Below the pieces are notes generated by a model that saw only the letters and a program-made list of their open reading frames with translations, did not search any database and had not been told where the DNA came from. The position numbers were made by a program, and so were the translations under genes. Of a stretch of DNA of 64,000 nucleotides, positions 2,122 to 23,262 are shown piece after piece. Numbering within the stretch: position 1 is the stretch's first letter; every line of letters begins with the position of its first letter. This DNA comes from Candidatus Latescibacterota bacterium (GTDB lineage: Bacteria; Latescibacterota; UBA2968; UBA8231): the NCBI GenBank assembly GCA_965223905.1, contig CBDCXV010000011.1, positions 1,184,001 through 1,248,000 of the forward strand. Direction: 5' to 3'.

Positions 2122-2139
2122 TGTCGGTGTCCACCGACT
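2122..2139. promoter_or_regulatory. dyad site TGTCGGTG-TC-CACCGACT (copy 1 of 6)
   Basis: Inverted repeat with a 2-bp centre, just downstream of the minus-strand promoter at 2163-2191. Confidence 0.7.
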
Positions 2140-2162
2140 GACTGCCCATCCGTTCACCGATT

Positions 2163-2191
2163 ATGGTAGTATTTCTTTGCGCCGCTGTCAA
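2163..2191 (-). promoter_or_regulatory. sigma70-like promoter TTGACA-N17-TACCAT
   Basis: Perfect -35 box with 17-bp spacing, upstream of the 2071-1850-1354 gene run. Confidence 0.55.
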
Positions 2192-2437
2192 TCCCCTCCG
2201 TATTCGCGCCGTTGCGCTCGACGCGTGTTGCGGCCAAGTCGTGGGAGCAGTGGCGGGCACGGTTTCCCGTCTTCAATCCTTCTTGCCGGCGAATCAGGCC
2301 GATCCTACCAGCTAAAGGATAGGCGCAACGTATTACACCTACCCCTTTGGTCGGCACCTACCGGCTACGCCAGTGGTTCAAAACAATCTGAATTGCCTCA
2401 AGCGTTAGCTCCAATACCACGGCCAACCATCTTGGCA

Positions 2438-2806
2438 TCATGATTTACCACCCCCTTTCTGTGGTGTGTCGTCGTCCCCGTTCTTTTTGAACCTCCCACG
2501 GTTGTCTCGATCCCGAGACCTTGCTGCTTCGCTCCTCTCGCGGTTCTGTTCTTCCTGTCGCCGAGCTTCTTCTGGGTTAACCCCGTTTTGGATATCCGAC
2601 CCGGTTTCCGTTTTCCCAAACTCCCGCTTCACCACATTCAACCGCTCTTTCACCTTCCCCTTGATCCACTCGGAATGAGCTTTGTTGACAGCAAGATGGA
2701 AGAGGCGGACCCCCACCTCCCTGGCAACGACCACGGCGACAGCCGTTACTACTGGCTTCCAGGGTATGCCACTGTCCTTCTTTCCGTTCCTGCGTAATGG
2801 TTCCAT
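2438..2806 (-). CDS. hypothetical protein (hydrophobic N-terminal segment, RDNRGRF motif)
   Basis: 122-aa ORF with an AGGA RBS. Confidence 0.55.
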   Translation of the reverse strand: MEPLRRNGKKDSGIPWKPVVTAVAVVVAREVGVRLFHLAVNKAHSEWIKGKVKERLNVVKREFGKTETGSDIQNGVNPEEARRQEEQNRERSEAARSRDRDNRGRFKKNGDDDTPQKGGGKS

Positions 2807-2817
2807 GATGTTCCTTT

Positions 2818-3027
2818 CTACAGGTCTTTTGGCCTGCCGGTTTGTTTGCCCCCTATCTTTTCCGACAGAAGGTCGATGAGTTCCCGCACTCTATGTGTGG
2901 GAATTAACACTTCGTAGGTCCCGCCGTCGCTGCGGGAGCCTTGTATCGAGACACCAGGAGCATTGATCCAGGCGAGGAATTCGCACTTCTCAATGTCCCG
3001 TATCTGGATACAGCGATGTTCGTTCAT
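2818..3027 (-). CDS. small hypothetical protein
   Basis: 69-aa ORF with a GAGGTG RBS. Confidence 0.45.
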   Translation of the reverse strand: MNEHRCIQIRDIEKCEFLAWINAPGVSIQGSRSDGGTYEVLIPTHRVRELIDLLSEKIGGKQTGRPKDL

Positions 3028-3164
3028 ACGCAGTTCACCTCTTTGTTAGGAGATAGAAGATGGATACACGACTACCAGCCGATTTCAGAGACGAAATCGC
3101 CAAGAAACAGAGAAAGGAAATTCAGAGACTACGGAAGGAGAAGGAACAGCTACGGGAAGAGCAC

Positions 3165-3209
3165 AAAAAAGCCCCCGGATCGTCAGATACCGGGGGCGTG
3201 GTTTTTTTT
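3165..3209. terminator. bidirectional intrinsic terminator
   Basis: A6-GCCCCCGG...CCGGGGGC-GTGG-T8. Confidence 0.6.
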
Positions 3210-3228
3210 CTCTGGTGGGGAGGGTGAG

Positions 3229-3528
3229 TTAGGGATCGGAGTCGGAACCGTTTCCAGCTGCCTCGATTCTCTTGACCGCATTCTCGATTCTATGGATGGG
3301 CTTGACGGCATTCTCAACTCTCTTAAGTCTATCGAGGACAGACTTAATCTCTGAATGTCTTTCAAGCGTGATCCGTATTGTAGCCTCGAATAAATCTATA
3401 TGAGCATTAGCTTTTGAGATAGTCATATCGTGCGCGGAATAAAGCTGAACCAAGTTTCCTCTGATATGGTCTATATGCTTTAAAGTTTTAACTTCGAGAG
3501 GTTCTTCTTTTCTTCTTTCGTCTACCAT
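3229..3528 (-). CDS. hypothetical coiled-coil protein
   Basis: 99-aa ORF directly downstream of the YkvA gene. Confidence 0.55.
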   Translation of the reverse strand: MVDERRKEEPLEVKTLKHIDHIRGNLVQLYSAHDMTISKANAHIDLFEATIRITLERHSEIKSVLDRLKRVENAVKPIHRIENAVKRIEAAGNGSDSDP

Positions 3529-3541
3529 CGTTTCCCTTTCT

Positions 3542-3949
3542 CTATGCCTTTTCGGGTATCTGTGGCGGATTGTCGTCTGAATCGTCGGGTTTGATCTTCG
3601 GCTTGTCGTCTTTGTCTCCGAATAGCTCCTCCATCTTTTCGTCGGCTTGTATTCTGTGGATAAGCTTTATGCTTGCGGCAATGGTAAAGATTGCCCCGGC
3701 CAGCACTGCAAGATCGTCCTGGAAGCCTATGACGGGGAGGTAGTCGGGAATTAAGTCGAGGGGATTTATGAAATACGCGAGAGCCGCGAGCACCACTGCC
3801 TTAGCCTTGGCGGGTGTGTCTGGATCGGATAACACGTAATACAGGACAAGGGCTTTCGAGAGTAGATCCTTGGCGATTTTCTTAGCCAGCTTAGCAACGG
3901 CTTCGATCTTATCCCAAAAGGTTTCTTCCGAGTAGTTGGGATGTTCCAT
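3542..3949 (-). CDS. YkvA/DUF1232 family membrane protein
   Basis: Motif ALAYFINPLDLIPDYLPVIGFQDDLAVL. Confidence 0.9.
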   Translation of the reverse strand: MEHPNYSEETFWDKIEAVAKLAKKIAKDLLSKALVLYYVLSDPDTPAKAKAVVLAALAYFINPLDLIPDYLPVIGFQDDLAVLAGAIFTIAASIKLIHRIQADEKMEELFGDKDDKPKIKPDDSDDNPPQIPEKA

Positions 3950-4056
3950 GACTAATCCCTCCATCCTTTTTTTGCACCGCTCTTCTTGTCAGCTTCGTAT
4001 CCTATTTTGTTTCCCGTCAGCCCACCAATAGCACCTACCAAGATGCCAAGAGGAAC

Positions 4057-5631
4057 GGGTGTCTTAGCTGATTGTTACGGTTTCGGTGGTTGTTTTTAGG
4101 TTTTCTCGGTACTGCTGAAAGACCCGGTCAAGCGTTCCATTGTACAAGGCGCAGCGCAGGGCCAGAATGGCGTTGCTGTTTTCCTTATACCACCAAGCGC
4201 CCGACCGTTTCAGACGAACGTGGCCGATGAAGCGATGCGCCGATTCGATCGCCCCCGACCCGATCGGGTATCCGCCCTTGCGATGGCTGCCGAAATCGAC
4301 CTGGTGCAGTCGCTTTTGCAGGTAGGTCAAGGCCGTGCCGATGGCCTCTCCGGCCTCTTCCGAGAGCGGCTGCATGCGCTGCAGACCCCAGACCACGCCG
4401 CTGCCCTCGCCGCAGAACAGGCGCGCCAGGGTCGCTTCCAGCCAATGGGCAGCACGCGCCGCATCGGCGCCGTATTGGGCCTCGGCCACCGCGTGCAGGT
4501 AGCTGCTGCAATGGTAGTAGTCGAGGATCTGACGGGCGCTCGGGAACAGCTCTTCCACCCACTTCCAGATCCACGGAGCGCCATCTCCGATGGCACACAA
4601 GCGCACCTGATCCTCCGGGATCAGCCCCGCCTCCTTGACCTGGCGCAAGGCCGCGCCGAAGGCCTGTTCGTTGCCCATCTGGTGCCAGGAGATCAGCTGC
4701 TCGATGCGCTCATCGTCTATCAGGTAGAAGCGAAAGCCCTTGGCTTCGTGGTATTCCCCCTGCCAACGCCTTCGCCGAGCCCGGCTCTTCTTGCGTCCGG
4801 GACGGGTGCCTTTGGCGGTCTGGGGACGACTGGGCACGTCGGCCGCGTCGATGGCCAACACCACGATCGGCCGCCACTTGCGACCGGCGGCGGCTTGCGC
4901 AATGCGATCCTGGATATCGGCCGCGTCCGGACACACCTGCAGCACGTCCAACGACCCGGTCTGTTGCAGCACCTCGTGAATCACACAATCGCTCATCGAC
5001 GCGTCGGTGAGCTCGTCCAACAGTTCGGCGGCGCGCCGGTGGGGCATCTCCAGCCCCAGCTTGACCCCGGCCTGCTGCACGTCCCACTGCTTGCGCTGCG
5101 CCGACAGGCCCAGGGCCTCGTCCAGCGGATAGAACCCGTGGTGACAGCCAACGCAGTAGAAATAGGGACGCTCCAAGGTCACCGGCCCGAGCAGCGTCTC
5201 CACCGTGCGCGAGCGAGACGGGCGCGCTCGCAGCAGGCCTTTGCACTTGGGGCAGGCCGCCTCTTCCTGGGCCAGGAAATGGCCGTGGCGGCGTTCGACG
5301 AAGGCTTCCACCAAGGCCGCGGTGAGCCCGGAGCGCTCTTGAGACATCGCCGCGGTGATCTCCATCAACGTCGGCGCACAAGATCCGCGCTCGCTCATTT
5401 GCGTCTCCACCCGATCCAGCCATTGGTCCAAGGCTTCATGCGCCCGGCTTCGAAAGCGGTCCTGACTCTGCCGCTCCTGAAAAACTTCCAGAGAGAGAAT
5501 CGCACTCATCGCTCCCCTTCTTTCTGAAATCAGGGGAGCGCGCCGCAGGGGATGCGGAAAAAGAAAGCAACTTACTGTAAAATATACACATACGCACCTG
5601 AATTGCGCTATAACAATTACTTAAGACGCCC
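4057..5631 (-). mobile_element. ISKra4-family insertion sequence, 1575 bp
   Basis: Imperfect terminal IRs GGGTGTCTTAGCTGATTGTTA / GGGCGTCTTAAGTAATTGTTA. 8-bp TSD AGAGGAAC at 4049-4056 and 5632-5639. Confidence 0.9.
4064..5509 (-). CDS. ISKra4-family (UPF0236) transposase
   Basis: Zn-finger CPKC/CVGC, GDGAPWIW, ILDYYH and GYPIGSGAIES motifs. Confidence 0.9.
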   Translation of the reverse strand: MSAILSLEVFQERQSQDRFRSRAHEALDQWLDRVETQMSERGSCAPTLMEITAAMSQERSGLTAALVEAFVERRHGHFLAQEEAACPKCKGLLRARPSRSRTVETLLGPVTLERPYFYCVGCHHGFYPLDEALGLSAQRKQWDVQQAGVKLGLEMPHRRAAELLDELTDASMSDCVIHEVLQQTGSLDVLQVCPDAADIQDRIAQAAAGRKWRPIVVLAIDAADVPSRPQTAKGTRPGRKKSRARRRRWQGEYHEAKGFRFYLIDDERIEQLISWHQMGNEQAFGAALRQVKEAGLIPEDQVRLCAIGDGAPWIWKWVEELFPSARQILDYYHCSSYLHAVAEAQYGADAARAAHWLEATLARLFCGEGSGVVWGLQRMQPLSEEAGEAIGTALTYLQKRLHQVDFGSHRKGGYPIGSGAIESAHRFIGHVRLKRSGAWWYKENSNAILALRCALYNGTLDRVFQQYRENLKTTTETVTIS

Positions 5632-5758
5632 AGAGGAACTGTCGCGGTTATTCCCCACCCTCCAGAAGCTAATCCTATAGCGGAGCCGATCTTAGCCCCC
5701 GCTACGGCTCCTGTCAGCAGTCCAGCTATGGTTCCGGCTGCTTCTTTTTTCCGTGGCA

Positions 5759-6802
5759 TTATTCCTGACCTCCTATGATAGCCTTGAGTTCTCCCCAGGA
5801 GGTCTGTTCGATGGAAGTGGGAATGTCGGGAGTATCGTATTCCCATAGTTTTATAAGACTGTCTGTTCCGGCACTGGCAAGGTATCGGGAAGACATAGCG
5901 AGGGCCGTTAGTTCGTTAAATAAATACCCCTCTCTCCCCTCGTGATGTTCCAGGGTTGCAGTAGGTTCCCAGGTGACGGTGCTGAGTATTTCGATTGCCC
6001 ACGATTCAGCTAACGAAACTGCAAGCAAATTGCTATCTGGAGAGAATGACATTTCTCCAACTGGCTTGTTGAAATACGAAGATATTCCCCAGGTATTAGT
6101 GTCCCACACTTTGAGCCTATTGTTGTTGGATATGCTGGCAAGTAACCGGCCATCGGGAGAAAATTCAAGATTAGTGACATCCCAATGGTCTGAGCCCAAC
6201 AGGGTGACGATTTTCTCTCCTGTTTCTGTATTCCATATGTATATAATGTCGTCTGTTGTCCCTGTTGCCAGCATGTTTCCGCCAGGATGGAATGCCAAGA
6301 AAGAGAAATACGGACCGAATTGGTCTCGGGATATTTCCAGCTTAGTGTCGAAGGTTTCTGGATCTACAAGGTATACAATTATATCATTTCCGATTGCAAT
6401 GGTTTCCCCGTCTGAGGATAGCGAAATCAGCAGAAATTCTCTGTTGGCGGAATAGGTTTCTTCTTCAAGGTTGATAATTATTGACCTACCGGAACGCAGG
6501 AAATCCGCCCGACTGTCTCCTCCAAAATCGTTTCCGATACGCCCACTGTTTATTAAGAACTTGCCATCGCGTGAGAACGTCATATGACGCCCACCGGTAA
6601 GGTTGAGCGGTTCTATCTCTTCCTCTCCGGATTCGATATTCCAAATCCTGATTTTCCCACCCCCGGTGCTTGCCAGACGGTTTCCATCTGGCGAAAACGC
6701 CAGTGAGTTTGTTGCGTATAACGATGGAGTATCTGGAATAAGAAATTCTTTATCGGAGGCAGATACTGCGGCAGCCAGCAGACACAGCAGTAGAAACGTC
6801 AT
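5759..6802 (-). CDS. secreted WD40-repeat protein with C-terminal TSWGELK tail
   Basis: Signal peptide and repeated AFSPDG..LAS..IKLW units. Confidence 0.9.
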   Translation of the reverse strand: MTFLLLCLLAAAVSASDKEFLIPDTPSLYATNSLAFSPDGNRLASTGGGKIRIWNIESGEEEIEPLNLTGGRHMTFSRDGKFLINSGRIGNDFGGDSRADFLRSGRSIIINLEEETYSANREFLLISLSSDGETIAIGNDIIVYLVDPETFDTKLEISRDQFGPYFSFLAFHPGGNMLATGTTDDIIYIWNTETGEKIVTLLGSDHWDVTNLEFSPDGRLLASISNNNRLKVWDTNTWGISSYFNKPVGEMSFSPDSNLLAVSLAESWAIEILSTVTWEPTATLEHHEGREGYLFNELTALAMSSRYLASAGTDSLIKLWEYDTPDIPTSIEQTSWGELKAIIGGQE

Positions 6803-7396
6803 TTGTCGATCCTCTTGCCGCTATGTCAGAGAAAGAGAGCCGTAGCCGCTACGCCAGAGAGGCCATCCGTAACGTCGAGAAACCCAGCCTGGAGCTTTCG
6901 CTATCCGGAAACGGCGACTACGGGAACTGCGCGTGGGCGGCAGTAGGGAATCTCTCTCCCCGAGCAAGGTGAAAGTAATCCCCGGCTCCCATTGGAGCCG
7001 GGTCCTTGCAACCTTGCCACGCAGAGAGCGGGAAGTCCCACCTATTTACCAAGTCTCAGGGAGCTACCCCTCGACTGGAAAAAACTGGCTGTTTTATTCA
7101 GCGGGAGACCCGACAAGCAGGACTCCACGCAGCAAGATTGCGAAGGAGATAGTAAACCTTCATTGATAACGACACAAGGGGAAATCGGTTACGGGTATGA
7201 GCGGTGAAAGATTACACCGAGAAGTGCCAAATGAAGTGCCAAATTTGCACGGCGAAGACGACCTTTGACCGGCAGCCCGGGAAGTTGGCACGACTCTTTC
7301 CGAAGCCCGTGGTATTCTCCGAAGGAAAATTCTGAAGAAAGCGGCGAGCAGCGCGGAAGCGGAGCCGGAGGGACTTCGCCCCCCGGCCTGACGTGG

Positions 7397-8389
7397 TTAC
7401 TTCACCAGATTCCGATACAACAGCCGTTTCCCCACCATCCGGGCAACGACGTCTTCCATCTGCTCGATGGTGTCCTTGTCGCGGATGTTGTGCCTTCCGA
7501 CAAACTCGTCTACGTATCGCTGTAAGTGCTTGGGGGACATGGAGTGATAGGTTCCCTTGTATCCTCGCTTGATATTTGACCAGAAGCTTTCGATGCCGTT
7601 GGTGTGGGAACCATCGGTAGAGAACTGGCCTTTTGAGTGAATGACGAACTCGGATTTTCCCGGCCACTTGAAATCCTTCAAAGCACTTGCCCCGTCGCTG
7701 TAAAGGGTGCCGTTTACTCTCAGGTGCTTCCGGGCGAATGCTCTCAGAATGTCCGCAGTTTCCGCAGGAATTACGCTCGCTGCGACCTTGCCGGTTTTCC
7801 TGTCCTTCATACCGACGACGATGGTTTTTCCATCCATCCATCGTTCCCGCAGTTTCTTGTCGGCATGTTTGTTGGCCTCCTTTCCGCCTATATAGGCTTG
7901 GTCGATCTCGCCTCTCTTGCTTCTGAGCTTCTCTTGATCAGACCATGCCTCCCTGATGCGGTGCGCCATGAACCAGGCCGTTTTCTGCGTCACCCGGAGG
8001 TCCCGGTGTAGCTTCATGCTGGACACGCCTTTCAGGCTGGACAGGTGCAGGTAGATGGCAATTGCCCATTTTTGATACGAGATATGGGAGCATTCGAGCA
8101 CCGTTCCAGTGCGAACGGAGAACCGTTTGCGGCAGTCTCCGCACCAGTAAGCCTGCGGTTTGCGGTTCGGGCATTCGGAAATCATGCCGTAACATCCGCA
8201 ATGGGGGCAGTATATTTCCTTGGGCCATCGAACATCCTCGAACCACTGTTCCGCCGTTCTGTTGTCCGGGAACTTCTCGAACAGCTCGATCAGGGATACG
8301 CCTTTCCTGTCGTTCCTTCCCGGCCCTTCCGGTACAAGGCCTCTTCCGGCTTTCGACCAGCGGCCCAGGAATCGCTTCAATAGTTTCAT
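7397..8389 (-). CDS. IS1595-family (ISXO2-like) transposase, copy A
   Basis: CPHC..WCGDC Zn ribbon, KTAWFMAHRIRE, EIDQAYIGG, YSDG, HTNGIESFW and KHLQRYVDEF motifs. Confidence 0.92.
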   Translation of the reverse strand: MKLLKRFLGRWSKAGRGLVPEGPGRNDRKGVSLIELFEKFPDNRTAEQWFEDVRWPKEIYCPHCGCYGMISECPNRKPQAYWCGDCRKRFSVRTGTVLECSHISYQKWAIAIYLHLSSLKGVSSMKLHRDLRVTQKTAWFMAHRIREAWSDQEKLRSKRGEIDQAYIGGKEANKHADKKLRERWMDGKTIVVGMKDRKTGKVAASVIPAETADILRAFARKHLRVNGTLYSDGASALKDFKWPGKSEFVIHSKGQFSTDGSHTNGIESFWSNIKRGYKGTYHSMSPKHLQRYVDEFVGRHNIRDKDTIEQMEDVVARMVGKRLLYRNLVK

Positions 8390-8792
8390 GAGTTCCTTTC
8401 TGGTGAGAATGGGGGGGAGCGGGTTGTCGGGATCGAGTCCCCCGCGCAGGTCGTTCCGAGACCCCTGGCAGGTTGACAAACGGCTGCAACGGGTGTCCCG
8501 CTCCCCTATAGGTCTTTGGAAACTGCCGGATCTCCGCTCAGGTGATTGTGAACGGGAATGATCGAACAGGTTCCCTAATGACGGCGGACTTGAAGACTTC
8601 CCGAGGATGCACCAGGGAGGCCGTCTGGCTGCCTAATCGAGGTTATTTCGGGGGGGCGACTACCCGGTTCCGGGCACCGGGGTGGAGGACGACAAAAAAT
8701 CCCCTGTCGGCCATTCGAGACAGGCGGTTACGTCACCCGGGGTCACAAACGGTTACGGCCCGAATGCCCAGGTCAAACCGAAATCCTGAAAT

Positions 8793-8810
8793 TGTCGGTG
8801 TTCACCGACA
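8793..8810. promoter_or_regulatory. dyad site TGTCGGTG-TT-CACCGACA (copy 2)
   Basis: Perfect dyad upstream of transposase A; its flank is homologous to the flank of copy 6. Confidence 0.7.
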
Positions 8811-8890
8811 GTAGAAACAGGGTAGCGGTCAGCAGACCCGGGAAGGAATGACGCCTCCCCGGGCTCCCCTCTGAAGGGCACCGCCCTGTC

Positions 8891-9679
8891 CTACTTGCCC
8901 GATCCTGCCTCCGGGTTGTCGGTGTTTTCCCGGGATACAGGCGCTGCTGTCGTCCTTGCCTCGCCCGATCCCGGATCTTCGCTGTTTACCGAAAAGGCGC
9001 TGTGGGAGTATATCTGCTGCTGATCGACTGAAGTTGTTTCCTTGGGAGTCCCCTTTTCCTCAAGCTGGCGTTTGAGCTGCTTGTTTTCCTGGAGCAGCTC
9101 GGCGATCCTTTCCTCGGCAACGCGCAGTTCATCCTCGGTCTTGCGCAGTTCGGCAACTTCTTCCTCGGCTTTGCTCAGTTTTTTCCCGGTCTCGCGCAGC
9201 TTGTCGCGGAGCTGCTGAATCTCCTGCGGGGACTCGATTTCGACGGGAAGCGACGGAGTGCCTTCGCCGTCAGTGACTTCCTCCTGCTGCACGGATGAGG
9301 CTTTCCCTTCAGCCACATCGGGTTCGACCTCCCTGGCCGGCTCCTTGCGTTTCGAACGGGCAGGTTGCCAGGCCTTCAAAGCCTGATCCACCGAGTTAAA
9401 TTTCCCAATTTGGGATATTTCATCATACTGCTCTGAGAGCTTCATCCATCGATGGGCCGTGCTCGTGGGGATGCCGGCGGACTTCAGCCATTCCCCCCAC
9501 TTTCCATGCGGCAGCTCTTTTTTGACCTCGCACAACGCCCGGCCGCATTCCCAGACTTCCTTAATGGTGTTCCTGAAAAATCGATTGGCAGATTTCCAAT
9601 GCTCGATTGCCCGACTCTGAGCATCGCTCAGGTCGGAGTTTTCTGCTTTCGTCTCCATTTTTCCCGATTCCTGTTCCAT
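8891..9679 (-). CDS. DUF3102-domain protein with coiled-coil tail
   Basis: Motif WECGRALCEVKKELPHGKWGEWLK...STAHRWMKL. Confidence 0.8.
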   Translation of the reverse strand: MEQESGKMETKAENSDLSDAQSRAIEHWKSANRFFRNTIKEVWECGRALCEVKKELPHGKWGEWLKSAGIPTSTAHRWMKLSEQYDEISQIGKFNSVDQALKAWQPARSKRKEPAREVEPDVAEGKASSVQQEEVTDGEGTPSLPVEIESPQEIQQLRDKLRETGKKLSKAEEEVAELRKTEDELRVAEERIAELLQENKQLKRQLEEKGTPKETTSVDQQQIYSHSAFSVNSEDPGSGEARTTAAPVSRENTDNPEAGSGK

Positions 9680-10555
9680 TGATATTCAACCTTTATTTGA
9701 GTGGAATCCTGTTCAGAGTTGCATACCTTGTGTGCCGGATGCCGCATTGCCGGGACGCAAATGCCCATAAGGTATTGTTTTAATAATTAGTTACTTCATT
9801 TCCTCATCGATTCGTTATTCGTCTTTCGGTGTCCTCCTTCCTCCTGCATATGAGTTCTCGCGGTACCCTGATTCCATCAGGTAATTCTTGGGGATCTCCC
9901 CGTAAGCCCTTCTTCCACAAGCATATAGCGCCTGCTTCCATCGTCCAAGCCTGAATATGGCTGGGTTGGATGTCCATGTCAAATCGGGCTGCTGAGGGAG
10001 TGGGCAGGTGGGAACTCGGGAATTCCTGCCCCCCTCTCAACTTCCTGTTCAGAGTAACCTGTGTGCGGAAATGGCTGATTTTCGTGATACGAAGGCTGTA
10101 AGGCGCTATTTTACAACAGGTTATCCGTTTTTCGTCTCTTCGCCTCGTGTCTCCCTTCCTGGCCCGACTTCCACGCCAAATCGGCTTCTGAACGGTCGTG
10201 TTTCACGGGCAAAGGCGCTGCTTTCGTCCTTCCACCTGCCCGATTCTCGATTTCCGCCGTTCAGGGCACTTGCGTCGTACACGACCCGACTTTCCTGGCC
10301 CCGAGCAGCCGAGGCGACACTGCACGGGTGAGCCGGCACTCGACGCCCCGGCGTCGGCATTTTCGTACGGGATCGATCCGACCTGGTTTTTCGGCAAGGG
10401 TCACGCGATACTGCATGGCTGAACCGGGCCACGACCCTTCCGGTGTCCTGGCTGATACTCGGGAGCCGATCACCGATCCACCGAGGGCAAGAGGTTGTTG
10501 ACTTGTGGCAGGAGGGGAGGTTAACTTTCAGAAAAGATGCCCAATTGGGCACTAT

Positions 10556-10573
10556 CGTCGGCGGTCACCGACC
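10556..10573. promoter_or_regulatory. degenerate dyad CGTCGGCG-GT-CACCGACC (copy 3)
   Basis: 13 of 16 arm positions match the consensus; lies just downstream of radC. Confidence 0.45.
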
Positions 10574-10586
10574 GGAGTGGAATCAA

Positions 10587-11059: not shown

Positions 11060-11677
11060 ATGACAAACCTCCTGCAACCGGATGAGGCATTGGCCGTCAT
11101 CATCGGAGACGCGCCGCTGACCCGGACGGAGGTAGTCAAGAAACTGTGGGGTTATATCAGGGAGAACGGATTACAGGACGCGAAGAATCCGCACTATATC
11201 AATGCCGACGACAATCTCAGGAAGGTGTTTGGCGGCAAGGAGCAGGTGACCCTGTTGGAGTTGACCAGGCTGGTCAACAAACACCTGTTCGTCGGCGCTG
11301 AAGGCGAAGCGGTAACGGACGAGGAGCTTGAGAGGGAGTTCGAGGAACAGGTGCTGGCGGGGTCTTACGAGACGCTGGGATGCTCGCCGGAGATCTCCGA
11401 CGCGGAACTGAAACAGAAATACCGGGAATTATCTCGGGAATATCACCCGGACAGGCTGGTAGGCGAGGAGATTCCCGCAAGTATCGTCAAGCTCGCGAAG
11501 GAACGGAACACGAGCTCGCGAACTTCCCCTCCGTGCTTCTGGCGGTGTGCGGTGGCTTCCGGAAGGGTTTCGAACCGGTCAACCTTGCCTTCCTTCACTA
11601 CTACCCAGCGACGGATAACCCATCGGGGTAGGTCTACTTCGTCGGGCATTTTTTGTCCTCACTCTTTTCGACGATAA
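11060..11677 (+). CDS. SWIB/MDM2-domain plus DnaJ-domain fusion, J-domain tail displaced
   Basis: SWIB: LTRTEVVKKLWGYIRENGLQD. J-domain: YETLG..LKQKYRELSREYHPD. The natural J-domain end (EEKFQEIQSAY) is found at about 12110-12150. Confidence 0.75.
   Translation: MTNLLQPDEALAVIIGDAPLTRTEVVKKLWGYIRENGLQDAKNPHYINADDNLRKVFGGKEQVTLLELTRLVNKHLFVGAEGEAVTDEELEREFEEQVLAGSYETLGCSPEISDAELKQKYRELSREYHPDRLVGEEIPASIVKLAKERNTSSRTSPPCFWRCAVASGRVSNRSTLPSFTTTQRRITHRGRSTSSGIFCPHSFRR
11443..11649 (-). CDS. small hypothetical protein, paralogue of 12171-12389
   Basis: Near-identical MPDEVDLPRWVIRRWVVVK... sequence. Confidence 0.55.
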   Translation of the reverse strand: MPDEVDLPRWVIRRWVVVKEGKVDRFETLPEATAHRQKHGGEVRELVFRSFASLTILAGISSPTSLSG

Positions 11678-11997: not shown

Positions 11998-12170
11998 GTT
12001 CCTTTCTTCCGGAGAATGCTCAAATGGAGTTTCTTTTTTGGGAACTATGTCAGGAATTTCACCCAAACAGGCTGGCAGGGGAGGAGATTCCCGCAGGTGT
12101 CATCAAGCTGGCGGAGGAAAAGTTTCAGGAGATTCAAAGTGCTTACGCAGCCGTTGGTGACATCCCGGCG

Positions 12171-12389
12171 CTAATCCCCGTCAGCCCTGATCCAGCCCTT
12201 GTTAGGCTGGTAGTTCTGAGGAATCGTTTTGACGCTTGACAAACGAAACTCCAACTCGCGTACTTCGCCGCCGCACTCCTGCTTGTGCGCGGTGGCCTCT
12301 GGCAGGGTCTCGAAGCGGTGCACCTTGCCGTCTTTCACTACAACCCAGCGACGGATTACCCAGCGGGGTAGGTCTACTTCGTCGGGCAT
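12171..12389 (-). CDS. small hypothetical protein
   Basis: Paralogue of 11443-11649, coupled to the upstream SWIB gene. Confidence 0.55.
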   Translation of the reverse strand: MPDEVDLPRWVIRRWVVVKDGKVHRFETLPEATAHKQECGGEVRELEFRLSSVKTIPQNYQPNKGWIRADGD

Positions 12390-12634
12390 TAGACATTCCT
12401 TCCTGTTGGGGTTATGTGATTCTTCAGGACCTCGGTTAGCTCCTTCGCAGACACCTTGTCCCGATCCACCAGAGCGCGTAGAGTGGCATCTACGTTGATG
12501 TATGGAGGCTCGGCTTCCAGATTGTTTTCCTTGATATGATCGCCTACCAGTTCGATGATCTTTACCCAGGACAACGGGGTATCCCCGACAATGACAGCAA
12601 GCGCGGGAGAGGGTTGATGTAGTTCAGAAGTCAT
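12389..12634 (-). CDS. SWIB/MDM2-domain protein
   Basis: QPSPALAVIVGDTPLSWVKIIELVGDHIKENNLE; homologous to the 11060 N-terminus. Confidence 0.75.
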   Translation of the reverse strand: MTSELHQPSPALAVIVGDTPLSWVKIIELVGDHIKENNLEAEPPYINVDATLRALVDRDKVSAKELTEVLKNHITPTGRNV

Positions 12635-12940: not shown

Positions 12941-13354
12941 ATGACTGTGCTTATCTGCCTGCTTTTGCTTGCCTCGGCTGCCTGGAGTATCGACCCTCCT
13001 GATTCGGTATGGGTAGAGAGCAGAGAAGATGGCTTTGTAACCCTTGCCTGGACCCTGGTCCCCGATGCGGGCGGGTATGAGGTTTACCGGGAAGTTGTTG
13101 TTACAACTGGAATAAATCAGAATGGAGAGGTAGTGCTCCTGGACGAACCTCTATTTGCTTTTGTGTTTTGGGGAACAGCGGAGCAGTCTGGCTTAGATCC
13201 AGTTCGGGTTAGGGTTGCGAAATTGGACAACGACCCTTCCCGGTGGGCTGTTTCGGCAGTGAAGGATGGAGAAGTATCAGAATGGACAGAGACGGCGGAT
13301 ATGCCGACTGCAATCCGCAAGCCAACCTGGGGAGAGGTGAAAGCGGGCAGGTAA
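12941..13354 (+). CDS. secreted FN3-like protein with C-terminal PTWGEVK tail
   Basis: Signal peptide, VTLAW..VPDAGGYEVYR motif, strong RBS. Confidence 0.75.
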   Translation: MTVLICLLLLASAAWSIDPPDSVWVESREDGFVTLAWTLVPDAGGYEVYREVVVTTGINQNGEVVLLDEPLFAFVFWGTAEQSGLDPVRVRVAKLDNDPSRWAVSAVKDGEVSEWTETADMPTAIRKPTWGEVKAGR

Positions 13355-13380: not shown

Positions 13381-14022
13381 ATGATACTCGGAGTTTGTAT
13401 TCTGGTGATGATCCTTGGGTTTCCAGGGTTCCCGTCTGAACCTGATGAGGAGAATAGTCGATGGGCTTTAGGACTCAGCCTGCCGGGTATGCATTCCGTT
13501 AGCTTTTGGCGTATGGGAGCTGCTCGGGACTGGGGAGTAGGACTATCCGCTATCGACAGACGGAGAACCTACCTATACCCCGAATTCGAACAGAAACCCT
13601 ACCCCTCGTATGCAGGAGAAGAGCCGTTTCTACAAACGGACCAGGGGTTCTTTTTGCTCCCCCGTGGGGAGGAGTATCGCTCTATTTCAGCCAGTCTTAC
13701 GGTGCGGCAATACCTGAGACGGGCAGTCGGAGACATACGGCCCTATACCTATGCCCAAGGAGGAATATCGCAAAGGAGCGACCGCAGCCTGCGGGACGAC
13801 CCATCACCGGACCTTGGGTTCAACCTGGGACTCGGAATCGGTCTTCGATGGATGCCCTTTAAACAGGTCGGCCTAACGGCGGCAACCGGGCTCCGCTACT
13901 CCCGGAACAGATTGAATCAACAGGAATACCTTTCCTTTTTTGAACACACCATACTACAGGAATCCGAATACCGGACCGTGCACTTCGGAGGTACTCGGAT
14001 TAAGGCTTTCTTTGCTTTCTAA
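13381..14022 (+). CDS. outer-membrane beta-barrel-like protein
   Basis: Alternating beta strands (RPYTYAQGG, LGLGIGLRW) and a C-terminal Phe. Confidence 0.7.
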   Translation: MILGVCILVMILGFPGFPSEPDEENSRWALGLSLPGMHSVSFWRMGAARDWGVGLSAIDRRRTYLYPEFEQKPYPSYAGEEPFLQTDQGFFLLPRGEEYRSISASLTVRQYLRRAVGDIRPYTYAQGGISQRSDRSLRDDPSPDLGFNLGLGIGLRWMPFKQVGLTAATGLRYSRNRLNQQEYLSFFEHTILQESEYRTVHFGGTRIKAFFAF

Positions 14023-15805: not shown

Positions 15806-15987
15806 GATACTGGGTCAGCGAAACTACCCCTTTTCTGGTATAATCCTTTTTTGAACACACCATACTACAGGGATCCGAATACCGGACCGTACACTTCGGA
15901 GGTAATCCGATTAAGGCTTTCTTTGCCTTCTGAGGATCGGTGAATCTGTTCGAATGGAACTATGAGACATCTGAAAGGAACAAGAGG

Positions 15988-16260: not shown

Positions 16261-16297
16261 TTTCTTATGGATTAAAGCCTTATTGAGTAGGCGAGCG

Positions 16298-17002: not shown

Positions 17003-17413
17003 GTAAGTTGTATATAAAGCGAACAAGTCCTATTCCCAGAACATATCGCAGCCAGTGTTTCTTGAGACGGCTTCGATTTCTTTCGTTCTTTCCATTAGAT
17101 AGTGGCAGAGGGAACCGAAAGGCGGGTCTTGACGAATCGGCAAAATGCCAGGAGTTCTCTTTCCGGCTCAAGGGACTACGCTCGTGGGGCATAGTTCAAC
17201 AGACGGACAAGAGGCTTCAGCCAATTGCCTGCCAATCTACTCGATCCCCCCTGCCAAAAACTGTCCGTCATCGTCGGATGTTCTCTTTTCCTCTTCGGGG
17301 TCTTCCTTCTCGCTGCACGGGATGCATATGTGCTCGTCGGGGGTGGGCATATAGAACAGGTGATATGGCCTGATTTCCTGGCCGCATACGCAGCAGACCG
17401 TCTTGAAAACCAT

Positions 17414-17863
17414 TTACTGCCTCGTGTCCCGGATTCTGCCCTCCTCGTCCACGAAGATCCGGAATGGCGAGGCCACCATTCTACGACAGGACTTGGTAAG
17501 GGCATGCACGCACTCGATGCAGATATCGAACTTCCTCCAATCCGTCATGCTGGCCGTTCCGACCTTGAGCTGCCCCCGCAAGTCGTCTTCGGAGGCGACC
17601 CCGTTGCAGATATCACAGATTGTGGTTCCCATTTTCGTTCTCCTTTCTCGGTGGATTTGATGCTTTGTAGGACAGGCGTAAGCCATTTTCCTGGTGATGG
17701 ATGATCGCCCCATGAGGCAGAGATACCTTTCCGGCATCGTTCGCTTCCCCTTCTCCCACAGGCACACTTCGGCTTCACTGACACCAAGGGCGATGCCCAG
17801 CTCCCACTGCTTCATGCCCAAGGCGTCTCTCGCCCTTTTCAGCTGATCTTGCGTCATCTTCAT
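17414..17863 (-). CDS. XRE/Cro-like HTH regulator, in frame with a CxxC-containing downstream part
   Basis: Motif MTQDQLKRARDALGMKQWELGIALGVSEAEVCLWEKGKR. Confidence 0.8.
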   Translation of the reverse strand: MKMTQDQLKRARDALGMKQWELGIALGVSEAEVCLWEKGKRTMPERYLCLMGRSSITRKMAYACPTKHQIHRERRTKMGTTICDICNGVASEDDLRGQLKVGTASMTDWRKFDICIECVHALTKSCRRMVASPFRIFVDEEGRIRDTRQ

Positions 17864-17885
17864 TCTCCATTTCGAGGGGGTGATT

Positions 17886-17903
17886 TGTCGGTGGTCACCG
17901 ACA
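17886..17903. promoter_or_regulatory. dyad TGTCGGTG-GT-CACCGACA (copy 4)
   Basis: Perfect dyad about 22 bp upstream of the XRE start. Confidence 0.75.
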
Positions 17904-17947
17904 GAAGGACACAGAACGGCCCTGAACCGGCCTGACGGGGCCGGGTG

Positions 17948-17976
17948 TTGACAGGTATTCGGGTTCCCGTTAGAAT
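17948..17976 (+). promoter_or_regulatory. sigma70 promoter TTGACA-N17-TAGAAT
   Basis: Near-consensus; conserved in module copy 2. Confidence 0.75.
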
Positions 17977-18081
17977 CGAAAACTGAGGTTCGAACGGTAG
18001 CGGATTCAGCGAGCGGGTCGCGGGAACTGCCTCTGCTTCACTTCATTGCAATGAGCATGGACCCGAGGGAGCGGAAGACCC

Positions 18082-18426
18082 TTGAGATGGCCTTTTCGCC
18101 GACGGCTCCACAAATGGATCGACGAAAGAAACCTTCGGGATGATCCAGACAAAGAGACATTGATTGGCATTTCAATGTCTATTCGCGAGAACCGTCGTGG
18201 AGAGCATGAAGACCCTGTACATGTGACCTTTTATTTTGCAACTCCAGGGTCTTACGATGGCGTCAAGAAAGCTATAAGTGAGAGCGGCGATCCTATCCCG
18301 GTGAGGGACGTAGATATTCAAATGAACCTGTCTGAATTCTTCTCTCTCTTCAAGAGATTCCAGGTAAAAATCTCTACCCGTGGAATTCTTGAAGGACGCG
18401 AAATATCCCTTGCCGAACTCGGGTAG
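18082..18426 (+). CDS. hypothetical protein
   Basis: 114-aa ORF downstream of the module promoter. Confidence 0.55.
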   Translation: MRWPFRRRLHKWIDERNLRDDPDKETLIGISMSIRENRRGEHEDPVHVTFYFATPGSYDGVKKAISESGDPIPVRDVDIQMNLSEFFSLFKRFQVKISTRGILEGREISLAELG

Positions 18427-18658
18427 CATATCGTCAAATCTCATTGAAGGGGTGCTCCGGTAGGTTCCGGATTGTATTCAGCCCTTTCCCTGGGCATTAG
18501 GCGCAATTCATCGGGATCTAATGAAGATCCAGGAGGATACTCCGGAAGCATCAAGACCCTGAATTGAAGGATCTGGACGAGTACGGCAAGGATCTTATCA
18601 GAAAGGGACTTCTACATCCAGAGGTAGAGAAGTATAATCTCAGAGGAGAACTTTTCCC

Positions 18659-18934
18659 CTATCCGTAGGGCCTGCCTTTTATACTACTCAGTTGCAGGGC
18701 TGCTCCGTTTTGCATGTTCACTGGGAGTGCAAGTAATCCCGTGTAATCCGAGGGACTTTTCCCCTCTATATACTGCCTGAACAAATCCGAAGACTGGGCA
18801 TCGAGTAAGCCGACTGACTGAGTAAGAGCATCTTCAAGTACGGCAATTCTACCATGAAGGAACTCGATATGATCCTTCAGTTGGTCTTGTTTGGGTTTCA
18901 TTTTGGGCTCCTTTTTAGTGATTTTTCGGGGCAC
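18659..18934 (-). CDS. hypothetical protein
   Basis: 91-aa ORF; the internal ATG (MKPKQDQ) has an AAGGAG RBS. Confidence 0.5.
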   Translation of the reverse strand: MPRKITKKEPKMKPKQDQLKDHIEFLHGRIAVLEDALTQSVGLLDAQSSDLFRQYIEGKSPSDYTGLLALPVNMQNGAALQLSSIKGRPYG

Positions 18935-18970
18935 GATACCTTCAAAACAGGCAGTTAGGGAGAACCACCT

Positions 18971-19318
18971 ATGTCCAGCCCTCTTTCTGCTGGCCCGAGT
19001 TGTCCTTTGTGCAACGGGTACCTTTGTCCGCCAGAAGAAATTTCAGAAGAGTTGAAGAGGTTGAGCTTTGACCGAAACCTACCTGCTTCCGTGCGGGCTA
19101 CTCGCATTGTAAATATCGCCGCTCGGCATGGTGGAAGCTGGTGGTGTGCGGCAGTCCTGGGATATTCGACAGTGCTGAGGAGGCCAAAAGCGATGCACTG
19201 GAAAAACTGGCTGCTTTATCCTGCCAGATCGAACAACCAGTTGCGCACGCGCTTCATTGGGTACTGGAGAGCTTCGGGGAGCGGTGAGTGGCAGAGGGAA
19301 CCGAAAGGCGGGTCTTGA
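18971..19318 (+). CDS. hypothetical protein
   Basis: 115-aa ORF that ends inside module copy 2. Confidence 0.35.
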   Translation: MSSPLSAGPSCPLCNGYLCPPEEISEELKRLSFDRNLPASVRATRIVNIAARHGGSWWCAAVLGYSTVLRRPKAMHWKNWLLYPARSNNQLRTRFIGYWRASGSGEWQREPKGGS

Positions 19319-19600
19319 CGAATCGGCAAAATGCAGGAGTGCTCTTTCCGGCTCAAGGGACTACGCTCGTGGGGCACAGTTCAACAGACGGACAAGAGAC
19401 TTCAGCCAATTGCCTGCCAACCTACTCGATTCCTCCTGCCACAAACTATCCGTCATCGTCGGCAGTTCTCTTTTCTTTTTCGGGATCTTCCTTCTCGCTG
19501 CAGGGGATGCATATGTGCTCGCCGGGGGTGGGCATATAGAACAGGTGATATGGCCTGATTTCCTGACCGCATACACAGCAGACCGGCTTGAATACCATTT

Positions 19601-19813
19601 TTACGACCCAGCTTTGTAGGACAGGCGTAAACCATTTTCCTGGTGATGGATGATCGCCCCCATGAGACAGAGATACCTTTCCGGCATCGTTCGCTTCCCC
19701 TTCTCCCACAGGCACACTTCGGCCTCACTGACTCCAAGGGCGATGCCCAGCTCCCACTGCTTCATGCCCAAGGCGTCTCTCGCCCTTTTCAGCTGGTCTT
19801 GCTTCATCTTCAT
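19601..19813 (-). CDS. XRE/Cro-like HTH regulator, copy 2
   Basis: HTH near-identical to the 17863 copy. Confidence 0.8.
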   Translation of the reverse strand: MKMKQDQLKRARDALGMKQWELGIALGVSEAEVCLWEKGKRTMPERYLCLMGAIIHHQENGLRLSYKAGS

Positions 19814-19834
19814 TCTCCATTATTCGGGGTTGTT

Positions 19835-19852
19835 TGTCGGTGACCACCGACA
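19835..19852. promoter_or_regulatory. dyad TGTCGGTG-AC-CACCGACA (copy 5)
   Basis: Perfect dyad; its centre is the reverse complement of the copy 4 centre. Confidence 0.75.
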
Positions 19853-19897
19853 GAAGGACACAGAACCGGCCCTGAGACAGCCTGACGGGGCCGGGTG

Positions 19898-19926
19898 TTG
19901 ACAGGGTATTCGTGTTCCGGTAGGAT
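19898..19926 (+). promoter_or_regulatory. sigma70 promoter TTGACA-N17-TAGGAT
   Basis: Homologue of 17948-17976. Confidence 0.7.
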
Positions 19927-20257
19927 CAGGACTGGAGGGTGGAAATACCGTTGCAGAATTCAGCGAGCCGGTAAGGGCAACTGCGTTGACTCGCTAACTT
20001 GCCGTTTTCTGCAAGAAGGGTCGGTATGGACTCAGCGTGAGATTAGGGAAACGGAGAACGACAGAAGGAAAGCCGGGTCCCGGGTCGCCTCTGTCCGGAG
20101 GTGCTGGCGGAGTTGGATACCGTGATTCGGATGCAGTCTTTCGGATTCCTGAAGCGCGCCGAGCAGGTCCTGCAGTGAGGGAAATAAACGTCTTTCTCTA
20201 TTATGTTATACCAGATTTTCAGCGAAATCGCGCTTTTGAATCGGTATTCTACCGCTC

Positions 20258-20767
20258 ATGGACGCTATGATACAGAGCGCAGCTGGACTGCGGTCCGTTG
20301 GGGAGGAGCTGTGGCGTGAAGGCACATCTTCCGATCCCGGGACCGACAGGTTCTACGGTAGCCTGCAAGCTGCGCCCATTCTTCTGGCTCTTGGAATCGA
20401 GCTTGCATTGAAAGGATGGATCTACCGGGAGTCGAAGTGCGAACCCCCGTATATACACGACCTGCTCTGCTTATTCGAAAAGCTGGAACATGAAACCCAG
20501 GAACTGCTCGAAGATGCGTTTCAGCGTAACCGAGGCGCTGGAACTCCAGATGATCCGATTCACGAAATGGGAATACCGAAGAGTCGGCTAGAAGCACTGA
20601 CGGCAAGGGATCTTACTTGCCCGCGTCTGTCGTCTCTGAGAGAGGTTCTCGAAGAACACCGTAACCTGTTCGTAAACTATCGGTATCCGTACGAGAGAAC
20701 GCGCGAGCGCCCTTATCCTGGCGTTTTGAACAGAGTCCTGGTTGTGCTCATAGAGACCTACTGGTAG
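20258..20767 (+). CDS. HEPN-like domain protein
   Basis: Motif LLALGIELALKG...YIHDLLCLF...FVNYRYPYE. Confidence 0.65.
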   Translation: MDAMIQSAAGLRSVGEELWREGTSSDPGTDRFYGSLQAAPILLALGIELALKGWIYRESKCEPPYIHDLLCLFEKLEHETQELLEDAFQRNRGAGTPDDPIHEMGIPKSRLEALTARDLTCPRLSSLREVLEEHRNLFVNYRYPYERTRERPYPGVLNRVLVVLIETYW

Positions 20768-20950
20768 ACTTTATTTATTGACAGAGGGGGCAGACAATCG
20801 GAAGTGTCCAGGAATCTGGAGACTGTCACATAGATGCGTAGCTAGTACGAGCCACCTCTGACCGATCCGACCTAAAGCTGCGAATTGCTAACACGAAAGT
20901 CATCGCGGTCTTGCGATACTGACTTGGGCCTCATCCTATCCGGAAAGATC

Positions 20951-21199
20951 GTGAATACTGACAGGAGTAAGGCCGTAATTGAAATTGCACCCCAGGTTGT
21001 CAGAATAGAAACTGCACATGGCTACCGCACTGGATTCATCTGTTACGCTGGTGAGCCTCTGCGTACTGTGGCAACGGCTTACCATGTCATAGACAATGCC
21101 GCAAACATCCCCTTATTTCCTGGCGAAGCAGTGAAAAAAACAAAACATCTCGGTAATCGTGGGAATTTCCCAAATTGTTGTTCGATGAGGAGGACATGA
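20951..21199 (+). pseudogene. trypsin-like serine protease N-terminal fragment
   Basis: VVRIET..GYRTGF...VATAYHVI; no catalytic Ser region follows. Confidence 0.45.
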
Positions 21200-22751
21200 T
21201 GGAATTTGAACAGGAAATGTTTGATGAACTTGGAGCTTTATGTAGATCAAAGGGATTTATTCATGTAATTCCATACTTCTATTTTAGAGACCATGTAATT
21301 GCCTATAACGAAAATGGATTGACTCCAGAAAATCTGGGGAATCTATATTCTTGGTCACGAATCACCCGAGCAGAAATAAACCTATTAATAGGATTGATTT
21401 TGCGCGGCCCTATAGACTTCTCCTTGCCAAGTCCTCACAAACTATCGGAGTACCTGAAACGCAGCGAAGAGATTTTAGGCAGTATACATACTTATAGCAC
21501 TCGGCCTAATAGCACTCGGCAAAAAATGGATAATGACACTCGGCCAAGTGATCTAAGAGATATCGGAGATTCTATAGGGAAGGATTTGAAAGGTTCCGAT
21601 TGGATTCGTGAGGCATCGTTTTATGCTATAGGCATACGTATCGTAACGTCAAAATATATAGTCATCGTAATAGAAAAACAGAGTTAGGAGAAATTGATGT
21701 CCTGGTTGTCTTTGGGCATCTTGCGATTGTCCTTCAATGCAAGTCAAAAAGGCTTACGCTTAAGGCGCGAAGTGGGGACACCAAAGCCTTTCAGAAAGAT
21801 TTTGCGGGAGCAATAGGAGGTGCGGTCAATCAGGCATATTCATGTGCAGAATTGCTTTTCGACTCTTCTGTCGTTCTGGTAGATAATCAGGACACGGTAA
21901 TCGAAATAGATACACCGCTAACTACTGTCTATCCTTTGACTGCGGTTTCTGATCATTTTCCAGGGTTGGCATTTCAGGTATGGAATCATCTGGACTTCAA
22001 ACCCACTGACAAGACACCTGCTCCATTTGTCACAGACATATTTACCCTTGATATAATAACTGAATTCTTGGATTCTCCTCTCAAGATTCTGAGTTACCTT
22101 AGACTCCATGCCAGGTTTTATGACCGGATGCTTGCTGATCATGAGATCGTAGTATTGGGATATCACCTTGAGAATAACTTGTGGATTAATGAAAAATGGG
22201 ATAGTGTTTATTTTGAGCCAAGTTTTTGTAGCTGCATCGATATAGCAGTAGCGGCAAGAAAACACGGAATGCCAGGCCCCAAGACTCCTGAGGGGATTCT
22301 TACTTGGTTCGACGGAACAATATTCGAAGAGATAATTCCTGAAATAGAAGGCAATCCTACCCCGGAATTGATAGAATTTGGGCTTTTTCTGCTTCAGTTT
22401 GGAAAGGCAGGAATAGTCAATATTAATAACCAGGGGACTCGCATATTAGAGATCACAAGGAAAGACAAAAAGATACACGGGTTTTCTGTTCCTTTTGAAT
22501 CTGAATCGAAAGGATTGACGATTAACTGTGGTGTTTCTGATAAGGAATCGGCTGAATGGCTGTGGCAATTTTGCCTTGGTCGCAAATACGCCAGTCGTTT
22601 TGATTATTGGTTTGGTGTATCTCTTTATCCTGACGGGTCTCCACGCTTGGCCATTGCCCTGGATGACCCTTGGGAATATGATGAGAATATGGAAGAATTA
22701 ATTTCAGAAATGCCGACAGATGCCGTGTCTTTAATATCGGATACTAAATAA
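21196..22751 (+). pseudogene. NERD/PD-(D/E)XK nuclease-domain protein with an internal deletion or frameshift near 21630
   Basis: Second frame reads YRNVKIY..ELGEIDVLVVFGHLAIVLQCKSKRLT and continues into 21852-22751. Confidence 0.65.
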
Positions 22752-23244
22752 AGACTTATGGTTCATTTACGATTCTCGGTTTTGTTCTCCCTTTTTGTAC
22801 AGTGATGGTAATTCCCTGACACTCCTCCCCTGCTCCGGGGTAGTTGTTCAGGCCGCGCAGCGTGGTCATGCCGTTCATGTTGCGGCCTGATGAGGTGGTT
22901 GCCCCAGGCGGTATCCTCCTCGGCGAAGCCCTTCCCACCACCGAGGAACAGCGCAACCAGGTCGTATCCCTCCAGCGATATCCTCGACCCGCAATTTCCT
23001 GAACCTCCCAGATACACCGGTCCTGACCGACCCCCCAGCGACAGCTTGCAGACCCAGGGGATCATACGGAGCCTCGTTCCCGCATCCGCTCCTCTCTCGC
23101 TTCCAGAAATTAAAGTTTTCTCCGTCACTACCGGATTCCTTCGACTAAAGTTTCCCCCGATTTGCTTTTTTAGAAAATCCGGGTACACTAATGATAAATC
23201 GAAAAGGAATCCGTCAGGATCCGCTGCCGCTTCTCTGTCCCTTC

Positions 23245-23262
23245 TGTCGGTGCACGCCGACA
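23245..23262. promoter_or_regulatory. dyad TGTCGGTG-CA-CGCCGACA (copy 6)
   Basis: One mismatch; about 110 bp upstream of transposase B. Confidence 0.7.

Follow-up and report, generated by a model that had tools for sequence, protein, structure and literature searches.

Why does one short palindrome stand at six places within a single low-G+C island, beside genes as unrelated as small regulators, transposases and a SIR2 gene run? The question is raised by a 64,000-nucleotide (nt) stretch of a Candidatus Latescibacterota bacterium genome (contig CBDCXV010000011.1 of assembly GCA_965223905.1, positions 1,184,001 to 1,248,000), referred to here as the window, in which positions 1-24800 have 44-60% G+C and most of the remainder has 60-73%. 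A first-pass annotation of this DNA had described an 18-bp dyad recurring across the low-G+C island and had proposed that a small protein of the XRE family would act on it to co-control transposition and cargo, with serine-recombinase sites as the alternative. The recurrence of the dyad is confirmed. In the reading tentatively preferred here, the dyad would be the operator of an island-encoded, dimeric, sequence-specific DNA-binding protein, most likely a small Cro/C1-type (XRE) helix-turn-helix (HTH) protein, a proposal built on sequence comparison and structural modeling. An island-borne repressor with several operators is plausible but unproven.

The dyad was searched for as TGTCGGTG-NN-CACCGACA, written TGTCGGTGNNCACCGACA, with up to three mismatches in the 64-kb window and in 100 shuffled versions of it. 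Seven matches are present, compared with a mean of 0.27 in the shuffled sequences, none of which (0/100) reach seven; three of the matches are perfect, two differ at one position, and two at three (Table 1). In the six island copies, mismatches are confined to positions 1 and 18 and the mirror pair 7/12, so that a core refined post hoc, GTCGGYGNNCRCCGAC (GTCGGYG-NN-CRCCGAC), fits precisely these six with no mismatch. The window is otherwise empty of this core even at one mismatch (shuffle mean 0.17), and the seventh match, at 49213, breaks it and is probably due to chance. The half-site TGTCGGTG occurs 12 times in the window, eight of them within dyads, and when perfect dyads with 6-8 nt arms and 0-8 nt spacers are compared, no other family reaches three copies, the CRISPR repeat palindrome aside. 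All six copies lie at 2.1-23.3 kb, within the island, and the 39 kb outside it hold no core match. All six are also in non-coding DNA, which makes up 29% of positions 1-24800 according to a hand-made gene list based on G+C at codon positions. The six copies and the centers reported by the first-pass annotation are reproduced by this search, as is their placement between genes or at gene boundaries, and its statement that no copy lies right of 24810 holds for the core.

The arms are matched at 13-16 of 16 positions in every copy, and the 2-bp center takes five different values (TC, TT, GT, GT, AC, and CA in copies 1 to 6), varying even where the flanks are unrelated. Symmetry ends at 8 bp per arm, giving an 8 + 2 + 8 bp layout of 18 bp in total, and the flanks beyond it are asymmetric. 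Invariant arms around a free center are the pattern expected of the site of a dimeric DNA-binding protein. Since the centers of the two half-sites are 10 bp apart, both arms face the same side of the helix. Each recognition helix would read one 8-bp arm, leaving the 2-bp center uncontacted, and we infer both binding and dimerization.

The positions of the copies are consistent with an operator. In five of the six cases the closest gene or gene fragment has the dyad to its 5′ side, at a distance of 27 to ~108 nt, and only at the XRE genes do perfect copies lie directly at 5′ ends. Three of the eight promoter-like sites that match at 10 or more of 12 positions in 1-26000 are within 50 nt of a dyad, where simple arithmetic leads one to expect ~0.3. 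At the XRE gene, bound protein would occlude the promoter, resulting in autorepression; a promoter match overlapping the dyad and equal to the 9/12 site of copy 5 does not occur at copy 4. At copy 1, which had correctly been placed just downstream of a TTGACA-N17-TACCAT promoter, the protein would block transcription by sitting between this strong promoter and the gene that opens the SIR2 run. The two IS1595 transposase genes would be repressed from copies 2 and 6. Both the choice of binder and the direction of control are likewise inferred.

The small protein encoded beside copies 4 and 5 can be placed in the Cro/C1 class of HTH proteins. Its AlphaFold model, built with 20 homologues, contains four helices at a mean pLDDT of 76, and the best Foldseek matches in the PDB are HigA2, C.EcoT38IS, Aca2, P22 c2, SinR, C.Kpn2I, and the C-terminal domain of MqsA (TM 0.55-0.66; best E-value 0.0095, none ≤0.001). 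Sequence matches in the PDB have E-values of 0.05 or worse. The nearest Atlas clusters are 100% HTH_3 (score 0.94), and a profile search with the XRE family yields 806 representatives at E ≤0.001, with HTH_3 proteins retrieved. A word-index search gives 28 homologue clusters at 78-98% identity, typically of 81 residues, and in the 29-sequence alignment all 25 invariant columns fall within the N-terminal 47 residues, which carry the predicted helices. The gene starts used here are the MTQDQ/MKQDQ start common to 27 database homologues. Homodimer prediction gives a score of 0.02 relative to a mark of 0.42, which weighs neither for nor against a dimer. Phage searches return two weak matches to the protein (40% identity) and plasmid searches none; the DNA of 17100-20300 is likewise without a match in the plasmid and phage searches. 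Once the small clusters of the protein itself are set aside, the closest profile matches are long proteins in which 4-12 HTH_3 domains stand in tandem, an unusual architecture; one of these proteins has 1048 residues and 12 matched stretches. None of the 18 profile-search relatives checked contains a transposase domain.

Two kinds of known system resemble the proposed repressor. The Cro/C1 (XRE) autoregulators, such as C.EcoT38IS, C.Kpn2I, C.AhdI, HigA2, MqsA, Aca2, P22 c2, and 434 Cro, share with it the small four-helix HTH, a palindrome upstream of the regulator's own gene, and an adjacent divergent promoter. They differ in that the sequence similarity of the window protein to them is marginal, that further dyads here stand at unrelated genes (the SIR2 run and two transposase genes), and that small Zn-ribbon open reading frames (ORFs) lie downstream in place of a toxin, methylase, or anti-CRISPR partner, none of which was identified here. 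In IncP-1 plasmids, KorA and KorB, like the master repressors of phages and integrative elements, use one short palindrome at several promoters to coordinate maintenance, mobility, and cargo. The island is similar in having one palindrome at several promoters of one element, at varying distances from the starts, but these operators are predicted, and no ParB-like or KorA-like protein was found. A literature search on the two arms gave no bacterial operator among the matches listed, only primers, miRNA, and similar sequences. No paper was found joining a genomic island, the XRE family, a palindromic operator, and transposase expression, and none naming IS1595 was among the matches listed for IS1595 with XRE and operator.

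Beyond the window, an exact-dyad scan of genome contigs returned at least 119 stretches, nearly all of them single copies in unrelated taxa, and simple arithmetic predicts 140-225 chance matches in 596 Gb. None shares the sequence extension beside the window's dyads (described below) or their gene context among the matches listed. The only multi-copy case among the matches listed is a Symbiopectobacterium plasmid (NZ_CP189884.1) that carries the exact dyad twice, 1.5 kb apart, with identical flanks. The exact dyad is also present in two Firmicutes genomes with a common G-rich flank. The flanks in Symbiopectobacterium and the Firmicutes are unrelated to those of the window copies.

Several observations weigh against the repressor. 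First, copies 4 and 5 lie in one segmental duplication (17111-18035 and 19287-19990, 87-100% identity) and count as a single observation, which leaves in effect one independent adjacency to link the XRE genes with the dyad. Each duplicated module consists of a minus-strand Zn-ribbon ORF with an HTH gene, the dyad, and a shared stretch at whose end stands a strong promoter-like site on the plus strand. Second, both XRE copies in the window are damaged. The frameshift in XRE_A is a 1-nt loss in a C-run (within 17617-17710), with the canonical 81-residue C-terminus readable in another frame, and in module copy B a ~236-nt deletion removes the XRE tail and a 72-residue Zn-ribbon ORF (19600-19611); the tail missing from XRE_B is modeled at pLDDT <50. 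In addition, the Pfam HTH_31 match of the protein (20.8 bits) is under the cut-off of 27. Third, not all positions suit an operator. Copy 3 is in a 3′ position with no coding-like ORF downstream, followed by a terminator-like hairpin (10552..10537) and then ~870 nt without such an ORF. Copies 4 and 5 are centered ~88 nt upstream of the starts implied by the divergent promoters, too far for occlusion, and no canonical promoter for either transposase gene was found near copies 2 and 6. Copy 2 lies 75 nt upstream of a RadC pseudogene fragment and 313-403 nt from the start of the left transposase gene. The earlier statement that dyads lie next to both IS1595 transposases needs correction for copy 2, where the RadC fragment intervenes. 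Fourth, a host factor, the DUF3102 protein, or the transposase would be an equally good candidate for the binder. Finally, a simple operator leaves the conserved one-sided extension unexplained, and some XRE homologues are found on contigs whose length, 746-785 nt, is close to that of the duplicated module (0.7-0.9 kb), which hints that this module is a multi-copy repeat; a multi-copy module would favor copying for part of the pattern. The regulon under a small XRE protein that had first been proposed is therefore upheld in part: the conserved arms with a free center, the 10-bp spacing, the perfect copies just upstream of the XRE genes, and the 5′ placement of five of the six copies speak for it, whereas there is a single independent adjacency and both XRE copies are damaged.

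The dyad may also be an operator for a protein other than XRE, although this is unlikely. Candidates are an island-silencing host regulator, the DUF3102 protein, and the IS1595 transposases through the zinc-ribbon region at their N-terminus. The conservation pattern indicates a protein site without naming the binder, both XRE copies are damaged, and two dyads are upstream of transposase genes; the DUF3102 gene, whose product has coiled-coil matches, ends close to copy 2. However, it is only for the XRE genes that perfect copies lie directly at 5′ ends. A general host regulon is opposed by the lack of any dyad in the 39 kb outside the island, and a transposase would be expected to have sites at both element ends, whereas the far end has none.

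The extension itself suggests another explanation. A 47-nt stretch ending in the dyad (8839-8793 and 23217-23262) is 79% identical between copies 2 and 6 and collinear with the transposase genes, in agreement with the common flank, oriented alike relative to the transposase, that the first-pass annotation had described. This extension (GACAG-AAGG-ACA-CAG…) also adjoins copies 4 and 5, for four copies in all, and is always on the side opposite the adjacent XRE or transposase gene. When flanks are aligned in register, the score is reached by 21 of 1000 shuffles for copies 2 and 6, 26 of 1000 for copies 4 and 6, and 15 of 1000 for copies 5 and 6; the best alignment of copies 2 and 4 is out of register. 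No similarity was found across the gene-proximal flanks, and no extension at copies 1 and 3, where the flanks are unlike the others. To the eye, copy 6 seemed to retain part of the XRE 5′ end, but this was rejected, since an equal score is reached by 98-159 of 300 shuffles. Conservation of the arms far exceeds that of the extension or of anything else around them. Because the gene-proximal flanks are unlike and copies 1 and 3 have no extension, the dyad is maintained by itself.

It is conceivable, though rather improbable, that the extension with its dyad (~47-60 nt) belongs to a mobile or duplicated unit, as a cis site or a relic. It might be a 5′ cassette inherited by descent, a transposase site of subterminal position, or a target favored for insertion, and the recurrence would then reflect copying and not a regulon. 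This would account for the four in-register extensions on the side away from the gene and for a cassette that is 79% identical between transposase loci whose coding DNA is 65% identical over 817 nt. A truncated RadC gene abuts copy 2 in a junction-like manner, and the 28 clusters of close XRE homologues include the module-sized contigs. Against it, copies 1 and 3 carry the dyad without the extension, so the dyad has been kept on its own, and the arms are much better conserved than the extension. Moreover, neither transposase gene has an inverted partner downstream: the search for an inverted extension with dyad there gave best local scores of 17-18, from matches of 9-17 nt. For ISApl4, a member of the IS1595 family, PMC12561309 reports 14-bp repeats that match at the two termini, together with target duplications of 8 bp. 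The ~47-nt conserved stretch upstream of both transposase genes, in one orientation, resembles such terminal inverted repeats, but it has no far-end partner, it also fronts XRE genes that have no transposase, and the dyad also occurs alone. With no downstream partner repeat at either gene, classical insertion-sequence ends are excluded. In plasmid and phage searches, the transposase has only relatives at ≤38% identity.

A bolder scheme, for which the chances are slight, combines copying with control. In this scheme, the extension and dyad (~50-60 nt) would form a portable control cassette copied to the 5′ ends of the XRE genes and of two long-diverged IS1595 genes, bare dyads would have been recruited at the SIR2 defense-like operon, and one repressor would link the expression of transposases and defense genes throughout a multi-copy module carried by the island. 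The XRE module (0.7-0.9 kb) may be a mobile unit in its own right, repeated and non-autonomous.

Could the dyad instead act as a nucleic-acid hairpin, either as a 5′-leader stem-loop that stabilizes or masks mRNA or as an element like the repetitive extragenic palindromes (REPs)? In all five leader folds the dyad forms a stem of 7 bp closed by a loop of 4 nt, copies 3 and 6 carry changes at pair 7/12 that leave G-U on the neighboring gene's strand, and copy 3 is in a 3′ untranslated position. Yet there are no compensatory changes, and a conserved stem sequence with a free loop is the opposite of what structure-only constraint would leave. The leader folds are also no better than shuffles (z −1.5 to +0.8), no Rfam family was matched, and no T-run follows the dyads. 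A tRNA search gave no hits. The REPs are similar in being short, GC-rich palindromes recurring in non-coding DNA, but the dyad is confined to one island in the window and is mostly 5′ of genes, not between convergent genes. Neither the island ORFs nor 22 large ORFs from the remainder of the window match a Y1 (RAYT) transposase, and the 39 kb outside the island hold no copies. A hairpin of either kind is very unlikely. A role as intrinsic terminator was rejected separately: in the terminator scan the dyad is never a stem of its own, and it has no T-run on either strand.

The first-pass annotation had drawn attention to the centers of copies 4 and 5, GT and AC, as reverse complements of each other. 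This is correct, but the two copies are not independent, both their flanks are collinear, and two transitions or a template switch within the palindrome can explain the reversed center equally well. Serine-recombinase sites (res site I, hix, gix) have ~12-bp half-sites around a 2-bp core, 26-28 bp in all. The view that the dyads are crossover sites of this type, with the 2-bp center setting the polarity of inversion or deletion between copies, is not supported and highly unlikely: inverted half-sites around a 2-bp center, the reversed centers of copies 4 and 5, and the mutual inversion of copies 2 and 6 around a 14.5-kb segment would suit it, but symmetry covers only 18 bp, no rearranged flanks are seen, and none of the 175 ORFs of at least 50 residues in 1-25300 matches a resolvase or integrase family (E ≤0.01 for 41 ORFs, ≤0.001 for 134 ORFs; the island may continue left of the window).

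Since the hairpin, the recombination site, and classical insertion-sequence ends all fit poorly, the island-borne repressor is the most economical reading. If it is true, one repressor would act through a single 18-bp site to keep in check two transposase genes and a SIR2-type gene run as well as the gene that encodes it. This would be a compact case of a mobile element coordinating mobility and cargo, and a narrow Cro/C1 subfamily not described before would gain a defined operator. Transposition and the SIR2 run would then be expected to become derepressed together once the repressor is lost, and damage has already reached both XRE copies here. The surprise for a specialist is limited, as a palindromic operator bound by an HTH dimer is a textbook mechanism. 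If the repressor reading is wrong, the dyad is still a clean marker of this island family.

Table 1. Copies of the dyad and the features around them, with mismatches counted relative to TGTCGGTGNNCACCGACA (window coordinates).
Feature	Position	Strand	Mismatches	Description
Gene run downstream of copy 1	2..2071	-		74-residue ORF 1847-2071; 146-residue ORF 1410-1850; SIR2-like protein 2-1354, running off the window
Copy 1	2122..2139	.	1	TGTCGGTG-TC-CACCGACT; 23 nt downstream of promoter-like site, 50 nt upstream of 74-residue ORF
Sigma-70-like promoter match TTGACA-17-TACCAT	2163..2191	-		10/12; points at copy 1 and the SIR2 run
Left IS1595-family transposase gene	7397..8479	-		Probable ATG start at 8389
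RadC pseudogene fragment	8512..8717	-		Residues 60-127 of 167; between copy 2 and left transposase gene
Copy 2	8793-8810; one-sided extension 8811-8839	+	0	Perfect; 80 nt past stop of DUF3102 gene
DUF3102 gene	8891-9679			Between copies 2 and 3; HTH-like N-terminus, long coiled-coil tail; coiled-coil matches
Copy 3	10556..10573	.	3	CGTCGGCG-GT-CACCGACC; core kept; 13 nt past stop of intact RadC gene
58-residue Zn-ribbon ORF downstream of XRE_A	17237..17413	-		Copy at 19422-19598 has an internal stop
XRE_A, Cro/C1-type HTH gene	17414..17857	-		Frameshifted after ~residue 50, fused to Zn-ribbon ORF
Copy 4	17886-17903; with extension 17886..17940	+	0	Perfect; 28 nt upstream of XRE_A start
Divergent promoter-like site TTGACA-17-TAGAAT	17948..17976	+		11/12; 44 nt from copy 4
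XRE_B, Cro/C1-type HTH gene	19601..19807	-		68 residues from MKQDQ start; ~13 last residues of the 81-residue form lost
Promoter-like site TGGTCA-16-AATAAT	19819..19846	-		9/12; first hexamer inside copy 5; reads into XRE_B
Copy 5	19835-19852; with extension 19835..19890	+	0	Perfect; 27 nt upstream of XRE_B start
Divergent promoter-like site TTGACA-17-TAGGAT	19898..19926	+		10/12; 45 nt from copy 5
Copy 6	23245-23262; extension 23217-23244	-	1	TGTCGGTG-CA-CGCCGACA; 108 nt upstream of right transposase ORF
Right IS1595-family transposase gene	23371..24381	+		ORF begins 108 nt from copy 6
Further match to TGTCGGTGNNCACCGACA	49213		3	Outside the island; breaks the core

The island also contains DUF1232, ISKra4-family transposase, WD40, DUF3102, RadC, two SWIB-domain, and two small HTH genes. 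Pieces of the 74-residue ORF downstream of copy 1 recur at the protein level in other island ORFs (1992-2055, 12315-12380, 13208-13342, 5783-5887, and 11587-11640; tblastn E from 3e-9 to 3e-3), which suggests a shared small domain or repeated gene fragments. The two SWIB-domain genes, of which one is a fusion with a DnaJ J-domain, are surrounded by duplicated segments (11424-11650 and 12040-12390, 83-84% identical). An 88-nt intergenic repeat with an internal hairpin-like stretch is present at 13933-14020 and 15844-15931 (94% identical), and a 40-nt AT-rich repeat (83% identical) is found upstream of a 169-residue ORF (20193-20232) and at the right border of the island (24724-24763). The ~870 nt between the RadC and DUF3102 genes (9700-10555), where no ORF shows coding-like G+C at its codon positions, may represent decayed genes or a non-coding RNA.

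Directly right of the island, a 2291-residue ORF (25033-31908, ~70% G+C) encodes fibronectin-III and cadherin-like domains, and the remainder of the window carries housekeeping genes and a CRISPR-Cas locus. The CRISPR array (60676-62079) has 19 repeats of 36 nt and 18 spacers of 36-40 nt, none of which matches the rest of the window. The cas genes near the array (48168-50444 and 58724-60493) include a Cas3-like gene and a Cas4-Cas1 fusion, and between them (51702-57523) lie three AAA-ATPase/PDDEXK_9 genes and an ISL3 transposase gene.

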